DNA of 64,000 nucleotides. It comes from Emiliania huxleyi CCMP1516. Its lineage: Eukaryota. The stretch spans positions 245,953-309,952 of the forward strand of contig NW_005201381.1 of assembly GCF_000372725.1 (NCBI RefSeq). The letters run 5' to 3'. Made by a program: the position numbers and the translations under genes. Shown one piece after another: positions 14,401-61,600 of the stretch. Each line of letters begins with the position of its first letter. Position 1 is the stretch's first letter. Below the pieces are notes generated by a model. That model searched no databases and was not told the DNA's origin. It worked only from the letters and a program-made list of their open reading frames with translations.

Positions 14401-15352
14401 CGACGGCCTCATCTCGAACCTCGACGAGGCGCGGATCGGCTCCGTGGTGGCGCCAAAGGCGGGCGTGCTGCCGCTGCTGCGGCAGCTCGCCCGCGCCTCC
14501 GCTTCGCCGCCATGGGTGATGCTCTCCTCCTCCACGTCGTCGCTGCTGGGCTACGCGGGCCAAGCAAACTACTGCGCCGCCAACGCCATCTTTGACCACG
14601 CCGCGGCCTTCGGCCTGCCGCCGCCGCCCGCCGAGCTCGGCTCGCCGCCGCGCGTCCTCACCGTCAACTTTGGCCCGTGGGGCGAGGTCGGGATGGCGCG
14701 CGAGGGCACAAAGGCGCACGCGCTGTCGGTGGCGAGTGGCGAGACGCCGATGGCGACAGGCGCCGCCATCGCCTGCATAGCGCACGCCGTCCGCGCCGTC
14801 GGGGCGGGCGCCGCATCGCCGCCCGCCGCCTCGCCGCCCGCTGCCTCGGCGGCCTTGAGCTCGGCATCTCCTCTCGCTGCCTCGGGACCCTCCTCGCCGG
14901 CGCCGGCGCCGCACCCGGAGCAGGCGGAGCCCAACCTGCAGTTTTGCATCGCCGACGTGTCTTGGTGGCGATCTCCGTGGCCCGACCACCCGCTAGTGCA
15001 AGGGGTCGTCCGCCGCTCGCCGGCGGCGGTGCCGTCGGCCGCAGTCGTCGCCAGCGGCGGCGGCGCCGCCGAGGAGGGCGGCGCGGAGGCGGGCGGCGTG
15101 CTTGCGCCGGAGCTGGACGCCGAGGCGAAGGCCGCCAACGGGCGCGCGCGCGCCGAGGCGTGGATGCGCGGGCGGCTCAACGAGTGGGAGCTGGAGACGC
15201 GGCTCGCAGAGCTGGGCCTCGACTCGCTCGACCTGGTGCAGCTGCGCAACGCCTTCAACAAGCACTTCCGCACCGAGGTGCCCCTCTCGGTCTTCTCGAA
15301 CGCCAACCAGACCCTCGCCGCGCTGCTCGGCCGCGTGGGGGAGCTCATCTGA
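3266..15352 (+). CDS. Spliced hybrid NRPS-PKS, TE-A-T-KS-AT-TE-KR-ACP (BurA-like), interrupted by two assembly gaps
   Basis: Motifs appear in order across exons. TE1: FPHAGGS, GHSLG, GGHFY. A: LVNDYSSWE, GEVYV, LYRTGDLAR, GRLDSTVKIRGYKV. T: DNFFDLGGHSLL. KS: VVGMAGRYP, MDPQHRLFLE, NSACSSG, ECHATGT, KGNLGH, GVSSFGIGGTNVH. AT: LFPGQGSQ, GHSIGE, RAYH. TE2: AFAGGS, GWSMGG, GGHD. KR: VTGGSGGLG, AGVLDD, GQANYCAAN. ACP: LGLDSL. Stop TGA at 15350-15352. Confidence 0.93.
6183..6348. repeat. Intronic tandem repeat of ccagccact/ccagccagccact units
   Basis: Directly visible array inside an A-domain intron. Confidence 0.9.
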
Positions 15353-15547: not shown

Positions 15548-16372
15548 ATTCACCCCCCCCCCCCCCCCCGCCCCGCCCCGCCCGCCCGTGCTCGTGCGAT
15601 CTCTAGAGCACGGTGTCCCTCCTAGCACGGACGAGGGAGTACTCAGCCTGCTGTTGCTCAGGGTAAAATTCTTTCCCGTGAAAGGTCAGCTACAGCTTGC
15701 TTGCAGAGCATGCTGTCTGGTATACGGCTCTAGCCCCAGGGCCCCAGCCTACTGCCTACTCCGCGTGAACTCTCGAGGGATCTCGAGTTGCGGAGAGAGC
15801 GCTGCTCGTTATTGAGAAGAAAAGACGTCCGATGGCGCTGTCGCTGGTCTGTGACTGTGTACTGTGCGGCCGCTACGCGCTAGCCTCTCGCTCTGAGGAG
15901 GGCGTCCATAGAGACACCTGACCTCACATGAGTCATGACCCCACACACGGTCCTGTCCGGCCTCGCGGTCGGCGAGATTGCTAGAGGCGGAGCAAGCCTG
16001 CTCTATAGTCTCACATGTTACTTCCTGTCGTCTGTTGTGTTGTTGTGCCCTTGTTTGTGTCCTACTCCTTTGGCACCTTGGAGTGCTGGGGGGGGCGACA
16101 GGGAGGATGTGGCCTTGAGTTATGTGTACGCCAACTCAGGGTGTGTGGCAGCCACGCTGGCTGAGTGTCTTGTGAGCTTGTTTGTGTCTGTGTCGCTCGT
16201 GCGTGTCGTCATCATCTGTCCCGCGTCCACCCATACCGCGCTGGTGTCCAGTCCGAGCCTGACTGTTCTTCACCTTTCTACCTATGTAAATAGGGAGGTG
16301 ATGATGAGTCAGGCCGCGCGGCGGGCGGTTAGACGTTACTGTGCGAATCGATTGTTACTGTTCGGGAGGCTG

Positions 16373-16900
16373 CTAGGGGGCCGCGGAGCGTGTCTCATTG
16401 CGGCAGGCGACGCAGAAAGGGAGGAAGGCGCCCGGCTCCTGCACGTGGAAGCGGAACCCCCCCGCCGGGTCCGACACGAGCACCTCGCCTCGAAGCGTCC
16501 GGCGTGGATCGCTCGGCCGCGGGCCGTGCGCTCCACGTCTGCGCGCGACGGGAGAAGCAGGCAAAGCCGCGCAGCGCGGCGGGCGAGCTTCGCCGCCTTG
16601 AGACACGTCGGTGACTGTGCTGCGCGGAGATGCGCCTCGACCCTCGTCCTGCGGTGAGGTACGAGGTAAGGTAAGGTTAGGTGAACTTCTCCACACACAC
16701 GAGGTGGTGGGGCAAGGGGGGGCGACCCTCGCGTCTCCACGTCTAACGACAGGAGCCCCACGGCAGAAAAGGGTTGGCTGGAGGCGGTCGCTAGACTGAG
16801 ATGAGACCGCCAGTGGAGTTGGGGGTCCACCGAGCACCGCGCTGCGAGCCTGTCGTGTCCCTTGTCAGGACCTAAGACCGAGACCGAGACCGTTGGGTAG
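16373..16900 (-). CDS. Possible small spliced gene of unknown function (5' end unclear)
   Basis: A GC-AG intron at 16649-16810, homologous to introns of two other genes, joins PQLHW|TRVEAHL in frame. No recognisable domain. Confidence 0.3.
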
Positions 16901-17208
16901 CGAGGATTGGTGTGACGCGATCCACGCACCACGCAGCTCGCAGGCGACCTACCTAACTAACCTGTGAGTGAGAGGTTGAGGTCGAGCCCTGGCCCAGGGG
17001 ATGGGGGCATTCACAGCCTTGTTCTTGAGAAGAATTCTAGAATACAAGCCTCTCTCACAGCACACTGGCACAACAAGGGCGCGGGCAGGCGCGGACACAG
17101 GTACACAGAAGAAATACCTCGGCGGTCGGCGCTGTGCTTGGCCGACCACCGAGGAGTGTGCGGCAAGCAGCATCTTTTGCCGAGGGGAGTCGAGGAGAGA
17201 GCAGCACG

Positions 17209-18024
17209 ATGGCCGACGGTGATCCCAGCGACCCGCCGAGCGAGGCCCTGTGCGCCGACTGGGCGCGGCGCGGAGAGTGCAGCAGCAACCCTGCATACAT
17301 GCTCGCATCCTGCAGCAGCGCGTGCGAGGCCGTCGTGCAGGCGCCGCCAGAGACGGGCGGCGTGGCTGTGCTCCTGTCCCCGCTTCTGTCGCTTCTCGCG
17401 GCCGCAACGGCGGTGGTACTGCTCGGAGTCGCGTGGGTGTGGATGAACCGCCACCAGCGGAGGCAGGACGCGGCTGCTGCGCGCTCGAGCGAAGTCGGCC
17501 TCGCGATAGCGCCCGAGACGGGGCAGCTCGCGAGGGCGCATGCGGCGGCCGAGGAGGCAAAGGCGATCTCCGCGAGCCGGGCGGCGTGGATGAATGCGCG
17601 GTTCGGCGCCGGTGCGAGGCGGCGGCCCGCGGCGGCGAGCGCCGGCCGAGGCAGCGGTGCCGGCGCCGGGGAGAGGGCAGATGCGGCTCCCGCAGTGCGA
17701 GCGGGGAGGAGAGGCGGCGGCAGTGGCGCCGCTGGCTGTGATGTCTGGAGCGTGGACGAGGCCGAGGAGGCCGAGGAGGCCGAGGAGGCCGAGGAGGCCG
17801 AGGAGGCGGACGGCGACGGCGACGGCGACGGCGAGGCTGCCGCGGCTAGCGGGGCAGCCGACGGCGGTGAACGCGCGGAGGAGAGGCAGCGCTTCTCAGC
17901 GGTCCAGCGGAGCTGGATGGCGCGTGCGCGCGGCGCGGCGAGACGTGGCCACACTCCGCCTCCTTCGCCGCCGCGCATGTTTACGCCGCCGGCCGGGTCT
18001 GATGCCGCGGCCGCCAGCCCCTAG
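17209..18024 (+). CDS. ShK-domain membrane protein
   Basis: CADWARRGECSSNPAYMLASCSSAC (ShK pattern), then a hydrophobic helix (LLSLLAAATAVVLLGVAWVWM) and an acidic EEA repeat. Confidence 0.75.
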   Translation: MADGDPSDPPSEALCADWARRGECSSNPAYMLASCSSACEAVVQAPPETGGVAVLLSPLLSLLAAATAVVLLGVAWVWMNRHQRRQDAAAARSSEVGLAIAPETGQLARAHAAAEEAKAISASRAAWMNARFGAGARRRPAAASAGRGSGAGAGERADAAPAVRAGRRGGGSGAAGCDVWSVDEAEEAEEAEEAEEAEEADGDGDGDGEAAAASGAADGGERAEERQRFSAVQRSWMARARGAARRGHTPPPSPPRMFTPPAGSDAAAASP

Positions 18025-18266
18025 ATGCGGGACTACGGACCCGTGTACTATCCTTCCTCTCGAGAGAACACGTACTCGGCTGTCTAGCAGCTGTATTCCC
18101 TCTCTTCGCAGCCCTTTGACTCTGCTCTCTCGATTCACGGCTCGAGGCGGCCTTTTCGCCTGCAGCTCACGACCTGACCGCTGCTGGTGTGCTCGCGACG
18201 CAGGCCGCCAACCCGAAGCCGCGCAGAGGAAGAATCGCGGCCGATCGGCCGCCTTGGCCCACGGCG

Positions 18267-20250
18267 ATGGCGTCGTCGTCGTCGTCGTCGTCGTCTTCGG
18301 CGGCGGCGGGGCGGGGCGGGCAGGGGGCGGCGGGGTGAAGCGCAGTGTGGCACACCGGAACCTTCTCGGAACATTCTCGGAACCTTCTCGGAGCATTCCT
18401 GTAGGTGGAGCGCGGTGTGGCACAACGGCGGCGGCGAGAGCAGCGCCGCGCTGCGGCGGCTTGCGCGCGGGGAGGGGTCGCTGCTGGTAGTCGCCGTGGA
18501 GGGGGTGGAGGCTGGCTCGCTCAGTCTGGTCCGAAGCTGCTGGCCGGACGGCGACCTTCTAGGAACCTTCTAGGAACCTTCTAGGAACCTTCTAGGTCCG
18601 ACACTGCTGGCCGGACGGCGACGTCGTAGCGGCGCTGCAGTCCCCCGGGGTGGTGCCGTTGCGGATGGGCGTGGGCGAGCCGGAGGCGCTTTGTTTTCCC
18701 CTGCCCCCCCCCCTCTTTCGTTCTCTCTCTCTTCTCTCTCTCTCCTCTCTCTCTTCTCTCCCTTTTCTCTCCCTCCCCCCCCCCTCCCCCCCCTTCCTCT
18801 CCCTCTCTCCCTCTCTTCTCCCCTCCCCTCTCGATCTCTCGATCTCTCGATCTCTCGACCCCCGAACCCCCCCTGCCCCCCTTCTCTCTTTCCCTCTGCC
18901 TGGCGGCGGACCCCTGATGAGATGACGCGAGATTGACCCGAGATTCGCCGGGGTCGTAGGCGGCGTTCTGGCTGGCGGCGCTCGGCGCAGCGCACGTGAC
19001 ACCGCTCATCGCGCTTCTGTGGGGCGAGCGGGAGGTGCGATCGTGTGTGTGCGGGAGTTGGTTTTGGGGGGGCGAGGGGCAAGTTGCTCACCCGCGCGCC
19101 GGGCCTCGCACTCTGAATGCCGTGCCAGCTCCTGCCTGTCGAAGTGTGGAGTCGCGAGAGTCGCTTGGGCCTTGCCCCACCACCGTTGTGTGTGTGGACA
19201 CGTTGACCTCACCTGACCTTAGGTGGTGTTGCTGCCACGCGCCATGCCGAAGGGGCGGGCGCACGCGTCGATCCCGTCCACCGTGGCGGCGCGCCTTGTC
19301 GCGTCGGCCGGCACTGCGGCCGCCGACCCGTTCTCGCCGCGGCGGGCGGCGCGGCTGCTGCGGCGATACGACGATGCGGAGGCGAGCGGTTTCCCGCGGC
19401 CGTCGCTCGAGATGCCACGGGCAGAGCCGGCACGCGACGGCAGCGGTGGCGGCGGCGGCGAGGGCGGGAGCGAGGGCGGAGGCGGCGCCGGGGATGCGGG
19501 TCTGATGGCGCTGCAGGACGCCGAGTATGCGCTCGCGCTTGAGGCTGACCAGAGGGCGGAGGCGGAGGCGGCGGCGGAGGCGGCGGAGGCGGCGGCGGCG
19601 GAGGCGGCGGAGGAGCGACGAGCGGTGAGGCGGGCGGAGGCGGGCGCGCGCGGCGCGGCGCTTGGCACGGAGCCGGTTGCGGGGCCGGGCGTGACGAGCC
19701 TGCAGGCGGTGCTGGCGGACGGGCGGCGTGTGGCGCGCCGCTTCGCGCTCGAGGCGCCGCGGCGAGATTGTCGCGCACTTGTTGTCCTCACCAGCGACGT
19801 TTCCGCGACACCTCCTAGCGCCTTCCTGGGCATGGCGCGACGTTTCCGCGACACCTCCTAGCGCCTTCCTTAGGCGCCGCTGCGCGACGTGTTTGATTGG
19901 GTGGGTGCATTGGGCGACGGGACGGACTTCGAGCTCGTGTCGAGCTTCCCGCGCCGCACTTTCGCCGCCGCGGCGGCGGACGAGACCCTCGCGTCGCTCG
20001 GCGCACAGCCTAGACTCTACCCCACCTAGCACACGCGACACACCCAGGCCGCATCACCCCCCTCCTCCGTGTTGATGCACTGCGCCTTTGCGTGCGGACC
20101 TCACGGCTCACGCCTCTCTTTCTGATGCTCGTCTGCCGCCTTGCCTGTTTAGGCCTCGGAGGGCAGACGCTGTACCAACGCCTCGACGAGGAGGGCGATG
20201 GGTCGGGGAGCGACGCTGCCGCGGGAGGCGAGCCGGGCGGAACGGGCTGA
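18267..20250 (+). CDS. Spliced UBX-domain protein (FAF2/UAS-UBX-like)
   Basis: Coiled coil LQDAEYALALEADQ. UBX-like segment LQAVLADGRRVARRF|LRDVFDWV...FELVSSFPRRTF carries the FPR motif. Several repeat-filled introns. Confidence 0.75.
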
Positions 20251-21414
20251 GGGTGGCTTGCGGCTGCGCGGGTGGGAGGAAGGGTGCGACGAGGAGTCGG
20301 GAGCGTCCGCCGGAAAAGTGTATGACGACAGTGCCGGGAAGAGCCGCGGGCGAGTCCGAGTGTTGTGTTTCGGTGTGCGTGTCTTGTCTCTTGCGTTGGG
20401 TCTCGCTCTCGGCGTCAATGTGCTGCTGTGCGTGGTAGATGTAGAGCCGTGCGCATTGGCACGCTGCCAGAAAATAACTCGCGCTATCCGTCCTATAGCG
20501 AGAGAGAGAGAGACCGAGCCGCATAAAAAATAAAATAGAGCCTCGAGGGGCGTCGAGGGAGCCCTCGTGTGGCTCGTGGACTGTTCTTGCTTCTTCACCT
20601 TCCTACCTATGTATGTTTTTATGGTGATGCTGCCACGATGCACAATGTGCTGCGTCGAAGCACCGGCCCTGAGTCCGAGTGAGTTTGATGTCCCTCATTC
20701 AGTAGTGCAACTGAGAGCTGCAAAAGGGGATGAAACAGCCCTTGGGGTGCTTGTATAGCCCTTGGCGCTTGGGTGCTGCCGCACAGCACCTTGTGCAGTG
20801 GCAATTTTCTGGCACTAGTGAGTTTGATGTCCTCATCAATAGGGTGCAACTGACAGCCAGCAAAAGGGGACGAAACAGCTGATCAACTGACTCTCGATGA
20901 GAGGGTCACGGCTCGGGACGGCTCGGTCGGGGCCCTCGGGACCGCTCGAGACCGCTCGGGACCGCTCTCGGACATTGGTCATTGCTGCTCCTCCGCCCCC
21001 CTGGCGCGACGTGAGTCCCTCTACACCGCTTGTGACTGTGCATGCATTCCAGGACGGTGTCAGAGACGCTTACTTAGACACCATTGGCTTGTGGGAGGAG
21101 TAGTTTCTTTCTTGTATTGACCAACATCCGGGATCGAGGTGGCCCCACCCAAGGGCCGCCCATCAAAGGGACTGCGACAGAAGACGCCCAATCTTGCTGC
21201 GCAAGAAAAGCGGCAGATGTCGGCACGCCGAAATAAAAGGCTCCGCATGAGCACAATGGAGGAAATTTAAGTTTCCACTTAAGTTTCCACAGTAGCACTA
21301 GGCTCTAGGCACCACGCTGTCGTCAAACCCTGGAGGGAGGATCGCTAGTGGCCCCCTCACGAAAAAAACTCTTGTTCGTTTGCCCGGTTTTGCGCCGGCG
21401 GCCGGCTCGCGGTA

Positions 21415-21902
21415 ATGAGCGGAGACACGCTAACCACCAGTTACCAGGACGCCGAGGAGGCGTTGAGCCGCGCAAAGCTCACGGCCGAGCGCACGGAGCG
21501 TGTCGGCGCCCACGTCCTCGGCACGCTCGGTGACCAGCGGCAGCAGCTCCTCGGCGCTGCGGACGGTGCGGCAGCTTGAGCCTTGCTGCGGCCAGCCAGC
21601 CACGGCTCCACTCCCACACCCCTCGACCTGTCCACCCCTCCACCACCCCAGGCCTCGAGGCCGCGGACCACGAGCTGGGCCGCACGAAGCAGACCATCAG
21701 CGACCTCTTTGCGCGGCTGGCGCGGCGTAGGCGCGTGGCGCTCCTCCCTCCCTCATCGCTCTCGCAGCTCTTAAATTCCACCACCACCGGTGACCCGCGC
21801 CCCTGTAGGCGCTGCCTCATCGGCACCGCCGCCGTGCTCGCCCTCATCGCCGCGGTCCTCCTCTATTGGAAGCTGCGCAATGCCTTTGGCGGAGGCGGCT
21901 AG
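21415..21902 (+). CDS. Short Qb-type (Vti1-like) SNARE with C-terminal TM helix, two introns
   Basis: AERTERVGAHVLGTLGDQRQQLL...ADHELGRTKQTI heptad motif, then LIGTAAVLALIAAVLLYWK. Confidence 0.7.
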
Positions 21903-23208
21903 CGGCGCCATCCTCGCCTTGGCCGGTCCCGGCTCTGCGGCTGTTTCTGAGAGAGGTGTGATTGTCTTTCGTCCAAGCCACAGTCTCACTTTGTCTCAAG
22001 ATTGGCGCAAACCAACGCGCAACGGCACAGGCACCTCTTATCGTAAAAGAGAGACGTGTGTGTGTTTTGTGGTGTGATGCTCTGAAGGATTGAGACACAT
22101 TGAGAGAGACACCTCTGAGACACCCTCGGCGAAGGTCACCTTGCTCCGTGAGAGACTGTCACACTCCTCTCACATCACTCAAAACTCTCAAAAAGCATGT
22201 GCACAAAAGCGCCACTGCGCTGTTGCCGAGTCTGAGCGGATTCCGCGCGCCTTTTCCCCTGCACCTCCCCCCTCTCACTAACGGTCACTAGAGACACACT
22301 ACGCCACGGTAGTTACGGCTAACAGTTTACTGTGGGCTCTCCATCTGATGACTGGGCTGGGTCTTTAGGCATTGTGGGGTTGGCAGTCCCATCGACCCTC
22401 ATGAGACCTCCTGCGGTCTCTGAGGTGGACACCACAGTGGGTGTGGGAGAGTGGGACCACAGTCAGGATACACTCGAAGGCTGGGTAAGCAGTAGAGCTA
22501 GAGGTCGATACTCGACGCGTCCCACATGGTCTGTGTCGCTGTCGGGACGCTGTCGACAGGACGTCGAGCGACACCGGGGCAGTGCCACCCAGGAGTGGTC
22601 GGGCGGTCTTCCGTCATGAGAGAGCCACCATGTGATCCGTATGATGATTCCTGACAACCGCCTGCCCCTCAGTCAACTTTCGTCACAGTTCCCGCTCTGA
22701 GAGGAGCTGCGGGTCAGCTCGACAGCTGGAGCTGTATCGCCGGCGTGCGGCGGCCTGCCTCCGGAGGTGCCTCTGAGGCGGACATTTTTTGGTCACCGTG
22801 AGAGAACGCGTTCGAATTTTACACTCCGGAACTTCAACTCCACACGCGCACCGGTCAGGGCTACAATAGTGCCAGTGACGAGGCGGAGGCGCGAGTGAGT
22901 CGGAAGGCCGCGACCGTGATTTGTTCCCTTCATTTCCTACAATCGCTGTGAGCTCCCAGCCACGTACTTCCTCGCTTTCACCGCGTTTGGTGTACTTTGG
23001 CAAAGTCTTCTTTGGTCTTTGCTCTATTTGCACTTTTGCAAACTTGTGAAATTCCTTCAGTGAAACGGGGGCGGCCGAAAAACTGTAACAACGTAGGAAT
23101 TCCTAATACTGTTTCATGATCATGTGAAGTTCTCTCTCTCAGTTCTTTTTTTTTAGCAATACCAAACAACTCTAACACTCACACGTAATTTGGGGCCTGG
23201 AGCCCTGT

Positions 23209-23780
23209 TCACGCGCGCGCGAGACGTGCAGACAGGGTTGCCAGGTGAGAGCGAATGGCGCGGTTCACGCCTCGCACAACAGAGAGAGAGATGCGCTCTG
23301 CATGGTGGGACATAAAAGAGAGCGAGTACTTGGGCGAGTAGGCCGTGCGGTCAACGCTGCCGCGCGCGACTTTGCGCGCGAGGCGGCGCAGCTTGAGAAC
23401 GGCGGTGGGCGAGAAGCCGCCGCCGAACGTCTCGTGGAGCAGCAGGTTGAAGTTGTTGCGCTTGACAAAGATAAATGACGTGTGAGTGTTAGATTTGTTT
23501 GGTATTGCTAAAAATCTCTCTCTCACAAAGATCGCGTCGTGGTAGAAACCGCGATGCGCCTTGACGTAGCCGTGGCCGGTCTTGTGGGAGAAGGGTTGGC
23601 TGGGCTGCCCGCGCGCCTTGCAGCCCATGTTCAGGCGGCGGGCCTTCTCCTCGGTGTTGCCGAAGGCGTAGGAGTGGCCGACGGAGGCGGGCGTGCCGCC
23701 ACTCGAGGCGTTGCCAACGCCCGTCGAGGAGGTCTTGAGGAGGGGCGTCCAGAGCTTGATCTCATTTACTTCATCGCTCA
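23209..23780 (-). mobile_element. Degenerate C-terminal fragment of a non-LTR retrotransposon (restriction-like endonuclease type, CRE-like)
   Basis: LLHETFGGGFSP...RISLSVVRG resembles the ETFGG...RLSxxxQRG C-terminus of such elements. No RT domain is visible. Confidence 0.45.
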
Positions 23781-23989
23781 TGAATTCACATGTGAAAGTG
23801 AAAGTTTGAAATTTCACTCACGAACCGCCTGTCAGCAGCGAGGCTTGTGCACCATAGCACAATTGCCGAATTGGCCAGGCCATAGCCCACAGATTCCTAC
23901 CACAGCCCTCTCTAGACACTCTCGCAGACCGGCACGCGGCCAGAGCGGTTCGTGATCTGTCGCCCCGCTCCCGACTCCTGGGGCCGCGC

Positions 23990-25085
23990 TCACTCTTTGC
24001 TCAGCTGGTTGGCGCACCGGTCAAAGCTCGTCTCGAGCTCGCCGTACTTCGCGACCCACGGGTGTGCGGGTGCGGAGATCTTGAGCTGGGAGGTGTACCG
24101 CCCGATCACCTCCGCCGGCTTCTGCAGCTGGTTGAGGCAGACCACCAGGTTGATGAGCGAGGTCGTGTCGTTCGGCGACTGCGACAGCGCCTCCTGCAGC
24201 AGCCTCTCGGCCTCGTCAAAGCGGCCCATGTGCATGTTGCACGAGGCCATCGCGTTGAGCAGCATGAGCGACATGTGGTACTTCTCGCCCAGCTCCTGGA
24301 ACTCGTACAGCGCATCCTGCGCCGTCTCGCCTCCCGACTCGCACAGGCTCGTCCACGCGTGCGAGAGCCTATGGGGAGCTTCCTAGAATGTTCCCTAAAA
24401 GGTTCGAGGTCAAGGGGGTCGTACACGTGTGCGAGAGCTTTGTCAGCGTGTCGTCGTCGTACTGCTCCTGCATCGACTTGACCTGCGGGGCGGGGCGGGG
24501 CGGGGGGGGGGGTCGGTGGCCCGGCGGGGTCACTGGGCGGAGGGGTAAGGGCGGGTCAAGGACGGGGGAGGGGGTCGAACGGCATGTGGCCTCTTTGGCG
24601 CAGGGCGCGGAGGAGGGCGGCGAGGCGGGGCGGGCAGCGCGCGCCAGCTTGCGCGCGAGGTCGGGGCGGTCCATTTGTAGGTAGATCTGGACGACGAGGG
24701 CCATCACGTCGATCTGCGTGGACTGGTGTGAAATCTTGAGCGCCTCCTTGTGGTCCCTCTCGTGCAGGAACACCGTCGCCGCCACGAGGATCAACTGCCA
24801 GTTGTCCTGCGCGGTCGCGTCCGTCAGCCACTCCTTGAGCTGCGCTACCACCGCCTCCTTGGAGACGCCCGATAGGTACGACGCGAGCATCTTGACCGCC
24901 TGCAGCGCGACCGGCGCCTGCGCCCCCACCTCGTCCATCACCACCCGGTGCTGCCCCTGCTCGATGAGCGCGCGGTACATGAAAAAGTCGCGCTCGGTGC
25001 TCGCGCCGAGGCTCATCGCCTCGCTGACCGCCTGCTGGTAGTTGCCCAGGTAGAGCGCGTTCCGCAACCCGTACAGGTCGCCCAT
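23990..25085 (-). CDS. COPE: Coatomer subunit epsilon, spliced
   Basis: MGDLYGLRNALYLGNYQQAV, VQIYLQMDRPDLA, MQEQYDDDTLTKL, EAERLLQEAL, PAHPWV. Confidence 0.92.
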
Positions 25086-26644
25086 CGCGGCGGAACTCTT
25101 GCGCAAAAAAAATTTCTCCTCACCTGCCTATAAAAATCGTAGATTTGCTCCGGACGAGACTGCCCGTGCCGCGGAGCAGCCGATATGCACACGAAGGCCG
25201 AGAAAGGCTAGGAGTACTTAACGAGTTCCGCGACCTACGCAGTCAAACCTGGGGGGAAACTGACCGCATGATGGCGGACTTCCGAAACCTCGGTCCTCGC
25301 TGAGCTCCTCTGACCGTTCTCGCTCCCCATCGAGCTCTTCACATTTTTGTGCCCGCTCTTAAGGCACAACAACGGGCACCTCCCTATGTGTCAGAGCGCG
25401 CACGAGTGGGTGAGTGTGCGAGCAATATCGAAAGATGGTGGAGGCCAGGATCGCACCACGGAAGCTCAATTTCCTCGCAATATAGAGAGTTGTGTTTGTC
25501 CTCAGATTGGACCAACAAAACGACAGTACTACTCTTCAGTGCGCGGGCCCACAATGCGACAAAACCGAAACGGTTGGTCTTCAAAGAAGTCCGTTACGCA
25601 CAAGCATGCGCGACTTGCACTCTTTCGTGCCGCTCGCTCGCCGGTGCGCGGCGCATGGCCTCCCGCGCGGCTCGCGCTCACTCGGCCTGCCTCCGCCTCA
25701 CGGCTGGCTGAGCATGCCATGGGTCCGCCTGGTGCGGCGCTGCTCGCTCGCTGCGCTGCACAAAGCTGCGAGAAGCAGGGTGGCCTCCTGAGCTTGAGCA
25801 TGGCGCAGCGCGGCTGCTGGTGCTCGAGGGCGGCCGTGCAGTGGCGTGAGGGCCTGATTGGTGGTGACCTCGTGCTGCATCAGCGTGCGCAGCATGCTCC
25901 CTCACCCGGTGCTGAGACATGCTGGTGGGCGACTGGCGCCAGCTTCTCAGTGCTGTCCCTGGCGTTGTGCAGCATGTCGCAATACTCCTGCTGCGCTGAC
26001 CGGCGCGCGGGGCGCGTCGTGCCGCGAGAGGAGCGAGAGGCTCGAGGCGCGCGGCTGTCGGTCAACCCTGCGGCGCATGCGCGCCGCCAAGGCTGCTCGA
26101 CAGGCGACTGGCATTGTGGCGACGCGGTCGCCGTTACTCCAACTTTGCTTTGCCGATCAAAAGCGCCGGTCCTTTCCTTTTTAGCCGCCGAAATTTAGCT
26201 TGCTGTTTTTTTTTCTTTATAGGCGTCTGCAACTTCCAAGCTGCGTATTCTTGTATTATCGTCGAGTAGTACAGGTACTTCGTGGGGGCAGGGTGTATTC
26301 TCGTAACATGTGCGTATTCTCGTATCACTGGCTCCGAGTAGAAAAAAGAAAGAAAATAGCTCCGAGTAGAGGGGGCGTTCTGCTGCTAGGGGAAACCTGG
26401 AGCGCGGAGCTAACCCTCGGAGACCCGTGTTTACTTTAAGGCCCTTGCCCTGCGAATGCGCACCCCCCCTAGCTAGGGGTCAGGGCTCTCTAGCCCGTAG
26501 CCCGATCCCGATCATCCGGCCCGCTGGGTGCGCTTCTGAGCTCCCCGGCCCTGGATGTGAGGCTGCCGACTGCACTCCAAGTGCTCCAAGTGCTCCAAAG
26601 AGCACAAAACCGAAGAGAATCTCTCTCAAAACCGAAACATTGGC

Positions 26645-27069
26645 CTGTATATACTTTTCCGGCAAACAAAAAGGAAAACAGAGGGCCCCCAGCACTTTGC
26701 GTTTCCGGGAATTTCCAGGGAAAACAGAGGGTGTTTGGTGCTCCATTCTGGAAACTCGCGAGTTTCCCTGAGTCTGAGAGCTGGTCTGGGGCAAAATCTG
26801 AGGCAAAATCGAGGAAACCGGCAACATCCCGGGCTTTTTCCAGGTATACCCGGGTTTTTCCGCAGGTATACCCGCAAAATACCCGGCATTTTGCCGATTT
26901 GGCTGATTTTGGGCCCAAACGAAACGGCAAACCAGCCTCAGACTCGGCTCAGAGCCCGGAAAATTTGATGGTTTCCCCGGGAAAATAGAGAGGGAAAGAG
27001 AGGGTGCTGTAGAGAAAAAACGAAAGGAAAAGAGACGGGGTGCGAGACCGAGAGGAAAAGTATATACAG
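26645..27069 (+). mobile_element. Family A non-autonomous element with 16-bp inverted repeats
   Basis: ctgtatatacttttcc (26645-26660) and ggaaaagtatatacag (27054-27069); the interior is homologous to the other copies. Confidence 0.85.
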
Positions 27070-27330
27070 CCTAACCGCCGAAACACGACGAAAACGGGCG
27101 CGGGGCGCCCCGGGCGGGAGCGGCTGCTACATATAATATAGTCGCCGACCACACCCACACAGAAGCCTGCACAAAGACCGCAGGGCGGGGACTTGCTCCT
27201 TTTTACCCATCTCCCAGTAGAGCGAGGTGTGGTCCGTGTTATTTATTTATTTAGGCTATACCTGAAGTATAGTAGTGTGTAGGGATGTGCGATGGCATAT
27301 CGTACCCTTCGCACAGATCACAGCCGTGCG

Positions 27331-27927
27331 CTATCGCTTCCCGTACAGCTTGATGTCCATCACGAGGTCGGGCTGGTATGGCCGGTTCGCGTTGCAGTAG
27401 ATGTTTTTGAAGCGCTGGAACGCGCCCTCACCCATGTCGCCCGGCCGCACCTCCCGCGGAGGGATGGGCCCAAAGCCGCCGCCGCACTCTTGGTACTGCA
27501 GCCCCGGCAGCGGGCGAGCGAGTCCCTCGTACGCGAGAGAGGAGGGGATGATGGCGCGCCGGACGCCGCCTGGCAACATCGGCGGCACGCCGCCGCCGCC
27601 CGCGACCGCCTGCTCGAGGCCCGGGATGGTCGAGCCGTCGCCAAGCGCCCACGCATACGGCTGCTGCCTCTCGGCTGTCGAATCGATCTTGGCGCCGTAC
27701 CTCGCACCCGTCGTAGACATGACGTAATCGATCACGACGCGGCACGGCGCCTGCGGCGCCGTGCCGCTGCCGACCTTTGCGTCCGCCCACTGCAGACCAT
27801 TCGACGACGTGGAGAACTCGAGCGCCGGCGTTGCCGCCACCGCCGCTGGAGTTGGCCGCATCGCAGGGCGGGCCGCGAGAGATGCCGCGAGCAGAAGCCG
27901 GCGGCCGAAGACCGACGCGGCGTGCAT
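27331..27927 (-). CDS. FKBP-type peptidyl-prolyl isomerase, probably plastid/thylakoid type
   Basis: SNGLQWADAKVGSG, VVIDY, IPGLEQAV, MLPGGVRRAIIPSSLAY, DLVMDIKL. N-terminal RR plus hydrophobic stretch. Confidence 0.88.
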   Translation of the reverse strand: MHAASVFGRRLLLAASLAARPAMRPTPAAVAATPALEFSTSSNGLQWADAKVGSGTAPQAPCRVVIDYVMSTTGARYGAKIDSTAERQQPYAWALGDGSTIPGLEQAVAGGGGVPPMLPGGVRRAIIPSSLAYEGLARPLPGLQYQECGGGFGPIPPREVRPGDMGEGAFQRFKNIYCNANRPYQPDLVMDIKLYGKR

Positions 27928-29619
27928 GTGAGATCAGTGAAGCCAGTCCAGTCGCACCTCCGGAAGTCCTCTAACATCACAACATGGAATTCCTACAGAC
28001 ACTAATGCTTTGGTCTTCACAACGCGCCTTGGTCCTCGGCTCCTCGCTCTGGTAAGGCTCACCAGAGCGACAGGGAATTCGACAGGAGGGCTAAAATCCG
28101 GAATATAGAGTAATAAGAGTCGACAAGAGGGTGCTCTCTCTATCTAGGCCGCGAAGACACCACACACGGTCTCCCTACTCATGCGCGGCTACTCGCTTAG
28201 TTGGTGTGGGTAAACGAAAGTACCGACCGTACTATCAGAGAAAAAGCCGGAAAAGACGCCGGCGGCAGTCCACGACGAGCCAGCCAGCTGCCGGCTCGCA
28301 CGGCAGCCTCTTCCTCTCGACCAGCCTCGGTCCGAAAAGCGGAAAAGCGGATCGCGCAGTCCGTTGTGGCTCGAAACGCGATGCCTCCGCTGGGAGACAC
28401 GGATGGCGCCGGCAGGAGACCTACCTATCCCCAGGGCCGCAGGGAACAGGGGAAAATGTATTTCAGACTCTTTATGCCTGTAGTGCCAGTGGCAGTGCGC
28501 GCCAGTTACAACCCAAGGGAGGGAGGGCAGGGAGCTTTGTGGTGCAGTGGGTTGCGGGCATTAAGAAAACAGGAGTCGGCGGCGCTTCGCGAACTGGCAC
28601 AGAAGGTTCGAGACGGCACGGATCTTGTGCTCCTATGCGCGGGAAGGGTTGAGTCCTGTCACGGCGATCTGCTGAAGAAGGGGATCCTGGCCGAAGCGGC
28701 GCAGCTCGAGGCCACCTCCAGCAAGAGGAAGCCGCGCTCTGATAAGGGCAAGCCGAGGGGTCCTCGGGGGCCCAGGGCTAACTCGGTGGAAACGGCGGCC
28801 CGCATGGGGTGCTGGCGACCTTCTACCTCCGGCACGCCTATGGACGGGACAGCCCGGGGCTGCATGAAGAGGACGGGGTGCTCTCCGCGAATGGGGGGGT
28901 GCTGTGTGCGGGGTGCGGAGAGGAGGCGCCCGGGCTCGGGGCGCGGGACGGGGAGGGGGATGGCGGAGAGGGGGGGGGGCGTGGGCGAGGAGGGGGAGGG
29001 GGGCGGTGGGGAGCGGGGGAGGAAGAGGGGGTGGGATCCGACAGAGGAGGAGGCGGTGGGGGTGGAGGGTGGGGAGGAGGGGGGCGTGGTTGGGGAGATG
29101 GGGGATCGGGGGGGGGCGGCCGGCGGTGCCTCCGCGGGGGGAAGAAGCGGGGTGTGCACAGCAAAGGGGGGCGGCGATTCAAAACGCTGAAGGGAAGGGA
29201 GGGCTGAGTGAGTCTGGCAACGCACACGTGTCGTAACGTCCACAAGTTGCTATGAAAATTCTACCGCCCGGCCAAGACCGCCCGCCCCCCTCCCCCCCCC
29301 CCTTTCCTCTCTGCCTCCTCCTCCACACAACGGAAGCACACACAGCACCACACGACCCCCGATGCTCTGATACAGGTGAAAGGCGGCGCTGTCTCTCAAG
29401 ATGGAAGCAGGAAGCTTCCATCCCGGCGGTGGTTCGAATCCACATGAGCCGAAGGTGAGGGGGAAGGTTTGCCTGAGATCTGAAGCTCACCCATTGAGGA
29501 AGTGAGGAGTTGCTCGGCTCACCCCGATCATGCCGAACAAGCTCCTCTTGTAGCTCGATCGGTCACACCGCCATCGCCGTCGGGGAGAGGGGGGACGACA
29601 CTGCTTCGGCAAGCGTGCA

Positions 29620-29728
29620 CCTCGATCCTGTACCGTGTTTGTTATGACGCCCCCCCAATGAACACATCAGTGAGGGAGGGCGAGACGATCGAGGGGTCCC
29701 GTACCATGCGGAATCGACCCTATCCAGT
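29620..29728 (+). repeat. Dispersed repeat family C (about 110 bp)
   Basis: cagtgagggagggcgagacgatcgaggggtcccgtaccatgcggaatcgaccct also occurs inverted at about 42150-42258 and 51152-51265, and partially at 43237-43273. Confidence 0.85.
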
Positions 29729-29740
29729 GCTCAAGTGCTC

Positions 29741-30207
29741 AAACAGGATTCCGCGGCACGCCGCCGTTTCTAGGCCTTTCCACAGCCCTCATCCACCCGA
29801 CGCCGTGGTTTCTTAGCTCCGGCCGGCACTCAAGCCAGAGCCGGCCCGATCGAAGGATTTTAGGCTCAAGGTACGAGATGCGGTCCGCGAGGCCGAGGCG
29901 CGAGGGCGGTGCCAGAGTCTGCCGCCGAGTTTGCTCTCTGGATGACGGGAAGACGCACACACACGCCTCCATCCACTCCACTCAGTTCAGTCTTCAGACT
30001 CAGAACACCGCAAGACTACTTGCAACTTGGAAAGAAAGTGACAAGTGCGCGCGCCGCAGGCGAAGAGAAAGTTTGAGCTGGGGCTCCCGTTCACACTCGT
30101 GTCTGGACTTTTCTCGGGGCCGCGCCTGCGCCGCGCCGTGGTTTCTTACTTAGATTTTTGCGGAAATCGATAGGTGTGGTTTCTTTCCACGTTTTTTCTG
30201 AATGCGT
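29741..30207 (+). mobile_element. Degenerate copy of the TA-TSD MITE at 61654-62124 with eroded termini
   Basis: Colinear similarity including cctttccacagccctcatcc, ggcactcaagccagagccggcccga, gacaagtgcgcgcgccgcaggcgaagagaaa, gatttttgcggaaatcg. Confidence 0.85.
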
Positions 30208-30337
30208 GCGAGGGAAAAATTCTGAATCAAAGCAAATAAAATTCTTTAAATGAGTGCGCGCTGCCCGTGCCGTGTCGTGCGAGGTAGTCTTTAAATTCTT
30301 TCAAGCAGAGTTGGCCCATTTAGTTCGAGTTGCCGGG

Positions 30338-30733
30338 ATGGCGGCAAGTGCGAGCGACCAGTCTGCCGCCGCGGTTTGCGATGCGGACGGCGTCTGCTGC
30401 ATCGTGCCGCAGGCAACAGATTTGGAGCAGCCGTCGAAGCCAGCGGGAGCTGTCTTGCCGTTGCTTTTCGGCGACGATTATTCGACGACGATCCTCAAGG
30501 ACGACGCTGGGGTCCAGCAAAGCGCCGGAGCGCTCGGTGGCAAGATCGTTGGCCTGTACTTCTCCGCAAGCTGGTGCCCCCCATGCCGCAAGTTCTCGCC
30601 GGAGCTTTCCAAGCTTCGCGCGGCGCACAGCGCCGATTTTGCCGTGGTCTTTGTCAGCTGCGACCGAAGCGAGGCCGAGATGAAGAGCTTTATCGGTCTC
30701 GCCGTGTGTTTGTCAAGCTTCCGCATGAAGTAA
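30338..30733 (+). CDS. Nucleoredoxin/tryparedoxin-like thioredoxin (3' exon uncertain)
   Basis: GKIVGLYFSASWCPPCRKFSPEL...VVFVSCDRSE. Confidence 0.8.
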   Translation: MAASASDQSAAAVCDADGVCCIVPQATDLEQPSKPAGAVLPLLFGDDYSTTILKDDAGVQQSAGALGGKIVGLYFSASWCPPCRKFSPELSKLRAAHSADFAVVFVSCDRSEAEMKSFIGLAVCLSSFRMK

Positions 30734-31307
30734 CGCGCCTCTTCCTTATTTCCAGCGCAGCTGCCACTCAGCACGTGCGCCAACGACGCCTGTGGCGGCT
30801 CTTGCATATCCCGGGAGCGGCTGTGACGAGAAATCCGAAAGGCTGCGTGAAGTCTTGGAAGGCAGGCGGGAATGGCTGCTCCTGGGTGCAGCTTTTGACG
30901 GGTGGTGGCTGCTCCGTGCAGTAGGCGGAGACAGCACCAAAAACTGGGATCATCGGAGGATTTCACTGAGCATCGGATTTCACTGAGCCGCCGTAGCTAA
31001 ACCCGATCCCTCGCCGTGCACACGCCACAAGGACCTCTTGCGCGAGCGGGGCGCAGAGGTGGCCACACCTGGGACCTGGGGGTGCGGCTTGGAAGTGTGG
31101 CGTGTGTGGATTTACAGTATTCGATTACCGATGTAGCGAACCGCGCAGAGTTTCTATCGTTAGTCTATCCGCCACTCCGCCTGTCGCTGTCCGCCACTGA
31201 CAGTGGCGCACTGTGGGGTTCGCGTGTCGGTGTCTGCGAACACTTCACACCCTCCACCCCCCTGAGGACCGTCCCCCTCCCACGCATGCGGCTCGCGGCG
31301 CCGTATA

Positions 31308-33047
31308 TCACGCCGGCACCCTCCCGAGCACGACGTCGTCCTCTGCAAAGTCGAGCTCCTTGTCGAGCCCGCCCTTGGCCACGTACTGCTCGCTGTAATA
31401 CCTACGCGCGGCGCATCTCGGACAAGTCCTGCGCGTGACCTTTGGGGTGCCCCTGGCCGTGTTCCGGCCGAGCACCACGAGATGTCGTCGGCGATGCTAT
31501 GCGCGGGCGAGAAGCCGAGCAGCCGGCTCGCCTTGTAAGGTCAGGTACGGTCAGGTAAGCTTCTCCACACACACAAGGTGGTGGGGCAAGGGCCAGGCAG
31601 CCCTCGCGACTCCACGTCTAGACGACAGGAACCCCGCGGCATTAAAAGTGCAAGGCCCAGTGCGCGTTGGTGAGCCTTGTCCGCCGAGACGTAGAAGGGT
31701 GTGTCGCGGAACGGAAACTTGTACTTGAACCCGTCGGGCTTGTCGAAGCCCGCGGGGTCGTAGTGTGCGATCTCACATTCCTTGCCCGCCGCGCCCGCGC
31801 AGAGCCGGACGAGGTCGTCGTACCTACTCACTCGCGGCTCGGCCTGTGAAGAGACGCCGTCCTCGCTGTGAAGAGCCGGACGAGCGAGTCGCACGTCACG
31901 AGGGAGGGCGTCGCGCAGTTGAACGCCTCGCCGACGGCCGCCTTGGCGTGGAGCAGCAGCGGAGACGGTCGTGACAACCTCGGGACAACCTCGGGACAGC
32001 CTCGGGCAGCCTCGGGCAGCCTCGGGCAGCCTCGGGCAGCCTCGGCCAACCTCGGCCCATTTCGGCCAATCTCGGCCAATCCCAATCTCGGCCAATCTCG
32101 GCCAATCTCGCCGACGGCCACCACCTCGTTCCCGACGGCGGCAGCGACCATGGCGGCGTTGTCGGCGGCGTGCGTCATGGTCACAAGCTGGTCGCCGCCA
32201 TTCGGCACCGGCACCTGCACGGACGTATCTCGAGTCGAAGCACGGCCTCGGCCAGACCTCCGGCTAGATCTCGAGCACCGGCCGTCCGCGGGTGATCCGG
32301 TCAAAGAAGAAGGCCAGGTAGCTCTTGCCCTGCGCGGGGCCGTAGATATACTGCGGCCTGTTCACACGCTGAGCTGTGAAGAGACGCTGTTCACAGCTTG
32401 CCGCGCGCCTCCCTGAGGTTGCGGCCGGAAGTAGGAGAAGGGGAGGCCCATCTCTGCGATCTTCTCCTCGGCCTGCCGCTGGCCCGAGCTCTTGACCGCG
32501 CACTCCTCGCCCACCGCCCCATAGTCGCCTATTCACGCCGTGAGCCGTGAAGCCGCACACGCCGTGGCCCACACCTCCGGCTTGCGCGTGGAGATGTGCC
32601 CTTGTCGGGCGTGTACATGCCCGCAGACGACACGTAGGCGTAGTTGCTCACACCCCAGGCCTTGGCCGCTGTTGCGTACGGGGCGATCGCCTCGGGCGAC
32701 TTGGACCAATTGTCGACCACCGCGCTGAACGACGCGCCTTCCAGCTTGGCGAGGCACGCTGCCGCCTCAGAGAGATCGCCGCCCCATATCACCTTGACGT
32801 CCGACGGCAGCTCTCCGTAGGCACGGTGCGCCTCCTTTGGGTTCGGGCCGTCGCCCTCGTGGAGAATTGTGACGGCATCGCCGCGAGAGACGAGGTGCTG
32901 AGCGAGGTGGAACCCGATCTCGCCGTGGCCGCCGCCCTTGTTTTGGATGACCAGCACGTCCGCCATGGTGACGGGAGCGACGCGCAGAGCGCCACGCGGC
33001 GTCGCCACAACGTGGAAGGAGTTCGCGAAGCCAGGGAAGAGAAGCAT
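31308..33047 (-). CDS. Plastid stem-loop RNA-binding NAD-epimerase-like protein (CSP41a-like), spliced
   Basis: Targeting-like N-terminus, then VLVIQNKGGGHGEIGFHLA, YVSSAGMY, RPQYIYGP, FFFDRITRGRP, FPFRDTPFY and terminal KELDFAEDD. Confidence 0.85.
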
Positions 33048-35025
33048 ATCGCGGTTGGGAGCTGCCTGCCTGGCCTGGACCTGGCGAGGTACTCCCACGC
33101 CTCTCGGGGTTTTAGTCTGGCCGAGCGAGACTGCGTCAGCTGTTTTCACAGCCTTGTTATTGAGAAGAAAATACCTGCTATGGCGCAGGATCACAGCCTT
33201 GTTATTGAGAAGAAAATACGAGCCCTGGAGGCCCTGGGGATGGGGTGAGACTACCCGCGGGCCTAGAAGGCCCGCGCGCAGGGGGGTGGCGGGGTGGGAC
33301 ATTGACAGTCAGCAGGCTGGAAGTACCTCGCCAGGCCTGGACCAAAATCGATTCCGGGGGAGAGTGAGAAAGGAATCCTGCGCAAAAAAGAATTTTACAG
33401 CCCGTGCAAAAAAGATTTTTTCTTGAGCTAGCCCACAAGCCGCAACCCGGCGCGGCGCGCAAAAGCGTCGATGGCGAGGCGCAGCGACGTCGCATTGGTC
33501 GCCTCGCCAAAGGTGACCTGTTCAACGATGCTTCGAAAATCCGTCCCGAGTTTCGACTCGGGGTGCGCAATCGTGGGTGCGGTGCCTCAGTGCGCGGCAT
33601 GGAGCCGAGCGCGCGCCGCACGAGCGAGAACCAGGCGGCATGCGCCGCGGCGAATCCGGCGGAAGGGACTGCGGAGCATTTCGAGTGGAAGTCGCGGTAG
33701 GCTCGCACGGAGCCGAACCCCCTCGCTGTTCGCACCGATGGGCTGAAGCTGTAGTCGTCAGTGAGCAGCGAATAGTTGAGCGAGCACTCCTATTATCGCA
33801 CATCGGTGTGAAGAGACTCTGCTCACGCCGGGAGTCCTTGCGGAGGAGTCGCGCGAGCGCTCCTCCTCGGCCATCTCGCGCTCGAGGACGACCGTCGAGA
33901 CGCGACGGTGGCGAAACAGGGTGCTCAGCCCGGCCAGCTTCGCCTGGGGCGGCCCGCGCACCTGGGGGCGCGTGTGGGCCTGTGAAGAGGTGGGGCGTCG
34001 GCGAAGTGCCTTGGGGGTGGCTGGGGGCGTCTGCGCACGTGATTGTCGAAGAGCTTGAGGATTAGCACGCACGGGTCAGCGGGCCGACAACCAGGCCTCT
34101 TCCGCCGCACTCGGCAGACGCTGCCGCCGAGCCGCTCCAGCAATGGGATCCACTCCTACAGCCGAGGTGTAGCCGAGGTGTAGCCGAATTATGGTCGAGA
34201 TCTAGCCGATATGTGGCCAATGCGCTCCTGCCGGTGGAGCGCCCGGGTCAAAACCTCGATGGTCAGGCTTGGGTCCGGCGCGCCTGTGGGACGTGTCGCG
34301 GACGATGATTGGCTTGTCGGACGAAGAGGAACCGACGGCGAGAGGCAAAGCCGAGGTTGAAGCTCTGGCAGCGGGTAAGGTTGGGGTCGGCCTTGCAGCG
34401 GCTGCCGCTGCCGTGGATGCGCGGCCAGTCGAACGCCTGCTGCAGCTCGCCGGCAGAGGCGGCGCAGCGCAGCCTGGCCTCTAGTTGGAGGGATAGGGAC
34501 GTGGAAGAGGAGCGCCTGCAGCATGAGGCAAGATGGTTTGCATCTCTTGCGTCCTACGGCAAGCGGAATAGGAACGACCTGCGCGACGCGATGATGATGA
34601 CTCGCGTCCCTCGCAACGCGCTGTCATCTTCGGGCCTGCCAGGCTGCGCCGCGCGCGAGGGCCCTGTCGCCAACGCGCTCGTCATGTTCGGCTCGTCATG
34701 TTCGGCTCTCAGCAACCGTGCGTCCCCAAACATCAAACGGAGGGAGGAAACAAAAAACAAGAATTTTAAAATTGCTCTGGACTCTGGCCTTTTCTGGGTC
34801 ACGTAGCCACACCTCCACCAGGCCTCTCAGTCAGTTCACGCCGGAATCGTGAACCGTGAACCGTGAACCAACTAGCCCCCGCCGCCCCGAGTCCGTGAAC
34901 CCCACGAAAAAGATCGAAAATAGTGCCCAAGGTAAGCCGGGGGAACTCGCGTCCCGGAACGCCTGCCCTACCTCGAAACACGGCGGTATCATCAGACATA
35001 CAGCAGCACAGGCAGGAGGCTTGGC

Positions 35026-35434
35026 CTGTACAAGCTTTTCCGGCAAACAAAAAGGAAAACAGAGACTCCAAGTGCTCCAGAGGTTCCCCAGCACTTGCGT
35101 TTCCGGAAATTTCGAGGGAAAACAGAGGGTGTTTTGGTGCTCCATTCTGGAAACTCGCGAGTTTCCCTGAGTCTGAGAGCTGGTCCCAATGGGGCAAAAT
35201 CTGCGGCAAAATTGAGGAAATCGAATTTCCCGGGTTTTCTCCGCAAAATTCCCGGTATTTTGCCGATTTTGCTGATTTTGGCCCCAAAACAGCCTCAGGG
35301 GACTCGGCTCAGAGCCCCCAAAATTGACGATTTCCACGGAGTTTTCCCAGGAAAATAGAGAGGAAAAGAGAGGGTGCTGTAGAGAAAAAAGGAAAGGAAA
35401 AAGAGACGGGGTGCGAGAGGAAAAGCTTGTACAG
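35026..35434 (+). mobile_element. Family A non-autonomous element with 16-bp inverted repeats
   Basis: ctgtacaagcttttcc (35026-35041) and ggaaaagcttgtacag (35419-35434). Confidence 0.85.
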
Positions 35435-61242: not shown

Positions 61243-61364
61243 GACGATGCGTCGGAGGGGAGAGGGAGAGGGAGAGGTGGCAGGCGAAGGGGCAGTGCTG
61301 GTCGAATTGAACTTCGCCGACGAGCGCTCAAAAAAAGAGAATAATCGGGTGGCACGACAACGGC

Positions 61365-61600
61365 TGGAAAACCCCGGTATACCTGGAAAATACCTGGGTA
61401 TCGTGCCGATTTCCTCAATTTTGCCCCAGATTTTGCCCCAGACCAGCTCTCAGACTGAGAGAGAGATTTTTATTTGTTTTTTCAGACTCAGGGAAACTCG
61501 CGAGTTTCCCGAGGGAAACTCGAGAGAAACAGAATGGAGCACCAAACACCCTCTGGTTTCCCTGGAAACTTCCGGAAACGCAAAGTGCTGGGGACCCTAG
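61365..61600 (-). mobile_element. Family A internal fragment, inverted
   Basis: cagaccagctctcagact, cagggaaactcgcgagtttcc, agaatggagcacc and ccggaaacgcaaagtgctggg are reverse complements of family A blocks. Confidence 0.8.

Follow-up and report, generated by a model that had tools for sequence, protein, structure and literature searches.

Insertions of a likely retroelement 3′ end and their probable role in the formation of new introns in Emiliania huxleyi

A 64,000-nucleotide (nt) stretch of the Emiliania huxleyi CCMP1516 genome (contig NW_005201381.1, positions 245,953 to 309,952; hereafter the window), GC-rich and eukaryotic in character, contains three copies of a shared sequence at separate loci. 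Introners are transposons that create spliceosomal introns in several algae and fungi, and a first-pass annotation of the window, made from the letters alone, proposed that the three copies are homologous introns produced by such an element. Does this element generate introns, or is it an ordinary repeat that has entered introns already in place? We consider it probable that the shared sequence belongs to a retrotransposon whose 3′ end inserts at many kinds of site, and that those insertions falling in the sense orientation at an exonic AG|G(C/T/A) likely become new introns, as one copy in the window appears to have done. The element is, by this reading, a part-time, retro-derived introner.

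Three copies in the window

The three copies, termed A, B and C, were compared by blastn within the window. Copies A and C are 85.6% identical over 104 nt (E 2e-27), B and C 77.2% over 136 nt (E 1e-21), and A and B 81.6% over 76 nt (E 7e-14). The core motif at a 2-nt spacing matched twice in the window, versus 0.00 matches expected in shuffled sequence; the motif of copy B has a spacer of 3 nt. These results confirm that the sequences shared at the three loci are true homologues. A search with a hidden Markov model (HMM) of the family (nhmmer) found no fourth copy in the window, and an Rfam scan of positions 16000-32500 gave one weak chance match outside the copies and no RNA family matching the copies themselves.

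Copy C (31532..31675, minus strand) is a 144-nt GC-AG phase-0 intron that consists of the element and its target duplication and nothing else. Its host is an eight-exon gene (31309..33047, minus strand), delimited by RNA joints and encoding an NAD-binding epimerase-like protein, which we take to be CSP41-like; the domain scan gave a weak NAD-binding/epimerase match only (Pfam NAD_binding_10, E 2e-4). RNA contigs from three of three runs, which belong to three studies (X10, X11 and X13), skip exactly these 144 nt, and the seven ambiguous letters at the RNA joint are the ACAAGGC repeat. A run whose kind is not on record and which is unspliced throughout (X3) retains the copy, and the same filled site was found in metagenome locus L051. 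The ACAAGGC that the first-pass annotation had reported at both junctions is present as described, at 31680-31674 and 31536-31530. The 5′ copy of this target duplication (ACAAG|GC, 31674..31680, minus strand) supplies the GC donor, with GC also forming microhomology with the element, and the 3′ copy (31530..31536, minus strand) supplies the AG acceptor, as indicated by the sequence and the RNA joint. The exact splicing of copy C is therefore likely due to bases duplicated on insertion, which supplied both splice sites. The diverged (ACCTT)n tail (31537..31559, minus strand) contains two CTGAC motifs, with the A at -20 and -10, and would serve as the predicted branch point and pyrimidine tract. 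The predicted fold of the whole copy was no better than that of shuffled sequences (z -1.0).

Copy B (19035..19222, plus strand), an older variant of the element, is a probable 188-nt GT-AG phase-0 intron in a gene (17209..20250, plus strand) that encodes a protein with a ShK-like N-terminus and a C-terminal UBX domain (Pfam ShK, E 3e-5; UBX, E 1e-4, downstream of the intron). The GT..AG join is in frame, and a stop lies directly 5′ of the downstream frame. The 5′ part of the copy is G-rich in place of the CA tract seen in the family. Since its first 50 nt align with family copy L114, and also resemble the second copy in locus L062, B is element-derived along its whole length, and it probably makes up the whole intron. 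The sequence AG|GTG occurs at the donor (19033..19037, plus strand) and again at the acceptor (19221..19225, plus strand), as a possible 5-bp target duplication or as microhomology, and the diverged tail (19203..19220, plus strand) contains TTGAC, CTCAC and CTGAC.

Copy A (16653..16765, minus strand) is 5′-truncated and young, being 99% identical to the reference copy of the family. The intron proposed for it in the first-pass annotation (16649-16810) was not confirmed. The element covers only 16653-16765 of this interval, the proposed donor at 16810 falls within a different repeat, and no clear target duplication was found at the copy. No joint at 16649-16810 was seen in two RNA runs, where missing RNA cover is not proof that the interval is never spliced. 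The surrounding region, 15970-17120, holds a nest of repeats, at least four in number and of high depth. Furthermore, the supposed exon at 16390-16639 matches contigs of three runs that continue with other sequence, and it is therefore a 250-nt duplicate of another, transcribed locus. Of the three introns first proposed, C is thus borne out by RNA, B is probable from its in-frame join, and A is not upheld.

A second repeat, with the core GTGAAGAGAC, was observed in two further introns of the CSP41-like gene, at 31822-31892 (71 nt) and 32352-32419 (68 nt); in the second of these introns the junction repeat has 7 letters and the contig depth is high. The core also occurs at window positions 33808 and 41242, and it has 8 matches in 200 kb of the collected loci. 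It is possibly another introner family, similar in length to the 70-nt E. huxleyi families of PMC9860276.

Anatomy of the family: a probable retroelement 3′ end

To place the window copies within their family, we sampled metagenome loci with an exact 26-base pattern, which yielded at least 120 loci, mostly out of two assemblies. Together with the window copies there were at least 124 pattern matches, from which four duplicates were removed (window copy C being counted as L051); a further nine copies with less than 110 nt of 3′ flank were excluded, leaving 111 copies that were classified. In pattern scans the family motif was absent from viral contigs and prokaryote genomes. Contig depth summed over the element reaches thousands of times the single-copy depth, a value that is not a copy number and is not used as one.

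All copies have a common 3′ end with an (ACCTT)n tail. Their 3′ ends coincide, and their 5′ ends are spread along a 120-nt unit or lie within an upstream (CA)n tract. Target duplications of 7-15 bp were found in 20 of the 53 copies for which both flanks were available, versus 1.3% when the pairings of the flanks were shuffled. Terminal inverted repeats were absent from all 11 copies tested, with local alignment scores of 6-10 (3-5 bases). Partial tandem copies occur in L008, L028, L062 and L082. The tail resembles C-rich telomere repeats.

Three copies (L047, L077 and L113) continue 5′ of the CA tract into a common sequence and have different 3′ flanks. In L047 this sequence contains an open reading frame (ORF) of at least 789 amino acids (aa), 69% purine, whose stop lies directly before the CA tract (L047:1612-3981, minus strand). 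This parent ORF is present in multiple copies and ends with an acidic tract and a weak SET-like domain. Its cluster of 72 members includes a named E. huxleyi protein, which, like the GC donors, fits the E. huxleyi lineage. In L077, a copy of 393 nt, the truncation falls within the parent ORF, and an 8-bp duplication flanks the copy. The copies therefore look like fragments of the 3′ untranslated region (UTR) of a retroelement lacking long terminal repeats (non-LTR), since the longest of them run into the purine-rich ORF. Truncation at the 5′ end, anchoring at the 3′ end, variable duplications and 5′ microhomology are features of long interspersed nuclear elements (LINEs) and reflect target-primed retrotransposition. 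From its anatomy, the shared sequence is likely the 3′ end of a non-LTR retrotransposon, the parent of which may be a LINE or a Penelope-like element.

The search for other kinds of head and for the remainder of the parent gave the following results. No Rfam match to a tRNA-, 7SL- or 5S-type RNA polymerase III head was obtained in 16000-32500, and the 5′ side of the element enters the CA tract and the protein ORF; no match to a hammerhead ribozyme was found in the window copies (Rfam). The analysis of the parent ORF covered its C-terminal ~870 aa, in which the weak SET-like domain was the only domain detected. No longer parent protein was found, which is weak evidence, and HMMER searches returned only near-identical fragments and distant SET-like proteins. 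The ORF region has no relative in the viral contigs. In the Atlas it lies closest to clusters of SET proteins from haptophytes and giant viruses (0.87), which is a lead only.

The window also holds three more dispersed intergenic repeat families of 120-480 nt. The first is located at 1113-1543, 26631-27074, 35021-35439 and 61364-61644, the second at 29599-29736, 42137-42260 and 51156-51282, and the third at 29741-30205 and 61676-62111. Element copies L010, L041 and L053 are inserted into some of these intergenic dispersed repeats.

Proposed intron formation and its alternatives

It was expected from the first-pass annotation that copies of an introner would be predominantly intronic and in the sense orientation, and that randomly oriented or mostly intergenic copies would point to an ordinary repeat. 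We assessed this with a small self-trained coding model (controls: coding 6-10, intergenic below -3). Downstream DNA was coding in the sense orientation for 25 of the 111 copies, in the antisense orientation for 3 and in neither for 83 (25:3, p 3e-5), in agreement with the predicted sense orientation next to coding DNA. A sense coding exon together with an AG|G no more than 20 nt from the tail was found for 21 copies and not for the other 90. Likewise, all seven further copies found in flanks by HMM had no coding DNA downstream; these are free of the pattern bias, but the flanks are mostly intergenic. The prediction of a predominantly intronic family therefore did not hold, and the picture of an ordinary repeat was found in one half only: the family is mostly non-genic, yet sense-biased.

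Whole-intron copies were sought by taking the nearest AG|G as the donor, followed by frame and Pfam checks, and were picked by hand. Eleven candidates among the 111 copies have the element and its junction repeat as the entire putative intron, 70-188 nt in length, so that a similar element occupies unrelated genes (C, B and at least nine metagenome loci). Their donors are GC in nine cases, GT in one and GA in one; nine of the eleven are in phase 0, and the junction repeats are 4-12 bp long. Four candidates have support beyond an open frame, namely C from RNA and L029, L083 and L035 from Pfam continuity (33 fragments scanned). In L029, a 70-nt intron with a 12-bp repeat and a GA donor, the positions of the M3 peptidase model run from 124 to 127 across the join; in L083 those of DAO_C run from 101 to 103 across an element-only intron, and in L035 those of NeuB continue within 2, again across an element-only intron. 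The host genes of L029, L083 and L099 encode an oligopeptidase A, a G3P dehydrogenase and a permease, respectively. L012 has weak Pfam matches on both sides, and for the other six the evidence is the frame. These results support the view that at least some copies generate introns, as the spliced copy C appears to exemplify, with the amendment that the splice sites are not the element's own but come from the duplicated target.

The first-pass annotation had also attributed to the element a branch-point-like motif of its own. CTRAC was present in 8 of the 21 acceptor-adjacent tails versus 3 of the 90 others, and CCTGACC in 8/44 changed tail units versus 0/28; the tail unit itself is YTNAY-like and pyrimidine-rich. 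The occurrence of the motif in tails is thus supported, its use in branching is predicted, and the pattern suggests that tails may drift to a better branch point. In addition, folding of 12 introns predicts, in eight of them, a pairing of the GUGUGUGUG motif with the 5′-most 45 nt (P at least 0.86 at 20°C); no such pairing is predicted in B, in L012 or in the two 70-nt introns.

We propose the following mechanism. The element would be mobilised by target-primed reverse transcription. Where an AG|G-N falls within the duplicated target, the copy on the left would become the donor (GC, GT or GA) and the one on the right the AG acceptor; because both splice sites would come from the duplicated AG|G-N, the original mRNA would be restored whatever the length of the duplication or the insert, and since E. 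huxleyi accepts GC, GT and GA donors (PMC4028052), more targets would be usable. The tail would serve as the branch point (YTNAY) and pyrimidine tract and would drift to CTGAC once under selection, while pairing between the CA-rich 5′ part and the GUGUGUGUG motif may form a bridge across the intron. Selection would purge antisense and unspliceable exonic insertions and keep the intron-forming ones, which may be why older copies are mostly found at acceptors.

An alternative, which we judge unlikely, is that an ordinary retroposon has joined existing introns or acceptors, that the all-element appearance results from loss of old intron sequence, and that no new intron positions arose. Several loci are of this kind. 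L048 and L068 (and probably L079 and L080) were inserted at an existing acceptor, with older intron upstream of the AG|G in L048 and L068, and L046, L061, L086, L089 and L102 lie just upstream of an existing acceptor inside longer introns. The 90 copies without an intronic setting fit an ordinary retroposon as well. For none of the introns was an empty site observed: the search among the collected loci gave a self-match only, and copy C is filled in the window, in L051 and in X3. With neither an empty orthologous nor an empty allelic site observed, intron gain rests on the duplications and the composition. Four copies (C, L029, L099 and L012) speak against the alternative: in these the element starts at the donor or a few bases from it, and both junctions are covered by an exon-derived repeat of 7-12 bp. 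Moreover, the aligned part of L029 is identical to the young reference copy, which leaves no time for the clean loss of an older intron.

The loci at existing acceptors and the missing empty site weigh against our reading that the element forms new introns, as do several further points. The census is limited by the pattern bias, the dominance of two assemblies and the small self-trained coding model. Seven of the eleven candidates lack support beyond an open frame. The junction repeats are just 4-5 bp in seven of the eleven, a length that is uninformative because the other introns of the CSP41-like gene show junction repeats of 2-7 bp; the 5-bp repeat of copy B is likewise within the range of other introns here. 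The enrichment of CTRAC is confounded with age and subfamily, and in L035 the final 45 nt contain no YTNAY. Finally, neither a reverse transcriptase nor an endonuclease was found in the examined portion of the parent ORF.

A slightly less probable alternative is suggested by a variant with GGC before the core motif. It could be a dedicated unit-length introner, resembling a short interspersed nuclear element (SINE) and derived from the 3′ UTR, that targets genic AG|G, for example through mobilised spliced intron RNA, in place of being filtered by selection. Among 62 near-full-length copies, GGC copies differ from their own majority by 7.5%, versus 2.8% for the rest. An AG|G lies within 8 nt of the tail in 17 of the 20 GGC copies versus 15 of the 91 others (background 19/111) and within 20 nt in 19/20 versus 25/91, and an AG|G with a coding exon was found in 14/20 versus 7/91 (p 1e-8). 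GGC copies reach the 5′ end of the unit in 15 of 17 cases versus 17 of 43 (p 0.001), and they have diagnostic changes in common. However, the tree gave no supported separation, placing the GGC copies as long basal branches of one lineage with weak support. Young copies (L029, L099 and L012) form introns too, and 5′ ends vary inside the CA tract, as a truncation hot spot predicts. We therefore retain the reading in which a retroelement 3′ end inserts broadly and some insertions become introns; the GGC variant would then be an older set of copies, with acceptor adjacency following age.

An introner of the miniature inverted-repeat transposable element (MITE) type, or another DNA transposon as in Micromonas or Aureococcus, is highly improbable: although ~82% of classified introners are DNA transposons with terminal inverted repeats (PMC12130899) and target duplications are present here, the absence of such repeats (11/11), duplication lengths varying over 7-15 bp, the fixed 3′ end, 5′ truncation, simple-repeat tail and strong single-orientation bias largely refute it.

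Additional features were noted in the introns of the collected loci and of the window. Insertion at an existing acceptor (L048:287-459 and L068:1441-1641) duplicates the AG|G and leaves an intronic AG|GT or AG|GC, which may be a ready-made recursive (zero-length exon) splice site. A third repeat of ~120 nt fills the 5′ part of three introns in which the present element also occurs (L048:1-290, L061:900-1050 and L079:1860-2060), so that these introns are made of stacked repeats. Short degenerate tandem units (GAACCTTCTCG-like and CCTCGGGCAG-like) make up many introns, which have duplicated exon ends, including those at 18345-18404, 18555-18599, 10250-10310, 10718-10765 and 31980-32110 in the window; these probably either belong to the E. 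huxleyi intron families of ~37 nt or represent tandem-duplication introns. A large polyketide-synthase-like gene is located at ~8500-15352 (plus strand), with ketosynthase (KS), acyltransferase (AT), thioesterase-like, ketoreductase (KR) and acyl carrier protein (ACP) motifs read from its translation.

Relation to known introners and implications

Non-LTR introners as a kind are already known. They account for 5% of the classified families, with 14 table rows and one Pavlovales haptophyte, and those published are few and mostly classed by homology; the rows include Pavlovales CCMP2436 fam1, Strongylocentrotus fam1 (I-Jockey) and Symbiodinium CCMP2456 fam3 (Gozashti et al., 2025, PMC12130899). 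Three E. huxleyi families in the same work are classed as unknown or LTR, and five E. huxleyi introner families described elsewhere average 37-70 nt, with 82% in genes (PMC9860276). The motif of the present family was found in none of the 14 supplement files of PMC12130899, the inspected rows of which carry no introner sequences, so that overlap is possible. Our literature searches, the scope of which did not extend to RepBase and subscription journals, gave no paper on this family. The family is absent from the published E. huxleyi introner entries examined.

The closest likenesses are found among retrotransposon-derived introns. As in the sea-urchin Strongylocentrotus fam1, both splice sites appear to be co-opted from the duplication, which is 5 bp in the sea urchin, and as in Pavlovales fam1, repeated introns (~160 nt in Pavlovales) probably derive from a retrotransposon in a haptophyte (PMC12130899). 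Pavlovales fam1, in contrast, carries its own acceptor and uses GT, whereas the donor here is mostly GC. The present family also differs from the non-LTR introners of that work: its introns are pieces of 70-190 nt truncated from a single 3′ UTR, the duplications vary in length, most copies are not intronic, and an age series leads from intergenic to intronic copies. In Polarella glacialis, introner-like class 14 (and classes 12 and 13) likewise takes both sites from an AGGH duplication, and the Polarella classes share the GC and GA donors and the strong phase-0 bias (Roy et al., bioRxiv 10.1101/2020.10.14.339549). They are described, however, as transposon classes with a defined structure, and their duplication is constant at 4-5 nt, unlike the 7-15-bp duplications, asymmetric ends and repeat tail observed here.

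With regard to the parent, the family resembles the 3′ ends of LINEs and SINEs with simple-repeat tails in its frequent 5′ truncation, common 3′ end, variable duplications and 5′ microhomology. It departs from LINEs and Penelope-like elements in having a weak SET-like domain, together with an acidic tract, at the end of the ORF, with no trace of the expected enzymes in the portion covered. The partial tandem copies recall the pseudo-LTR tandems of the Penelope-like Naiad/Chlamys elements (PMC8557442). The predicted pairing is reminiscent of the (AC)m-(GT)n bridged introns of zebrafish, which are AC-rich near the donor and have a GU repeat near the acceptor (Lin et al., PMC4691745); here, unlike in zebrafish, a single mobile 3′ UTR provides both tracts ready-made, the GU tract measures only 9 nt, and the pairing is a prediction.

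A much broader proposal, which we regard as doubtful, is that the retroelement is still active and that its 3′ UTR, with a branch/pyrimidine tail and a CA-GU bridge, amounts to an intron body in finished form. It would go on producing GC-AG introns in this bloom-forming coccolithophore, would have given rise to a unit-length subfamily targeting genic AG|G and, together with sister repeats, would account for a sizeable share of the alga's unusual GC-donor introns, missed until now because gene models mis-call GC donors. Curated E. huxleyi donors are 56% GC, 40% GT and 4% GA, compared with 82% GT donors in gene models (PMC4028052), and annotation-based introner surveys may therefore undercount introners in this species.

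The family displays, side by side, a parent ORF, a truncation series, variable duplications, intronic and non-intronic copies of differing ages and one exactly spliced product. It raises the question of whether chance retro-insertion, combined with a permissive donor (GC, GT or GA), can sustain a steady gain of introns in the absence of a specialised introner, and the question of whether new introns later evolve better branch points. Both questions are testable in E. huxleyi, for which cultures, many strains and RNA data exist.

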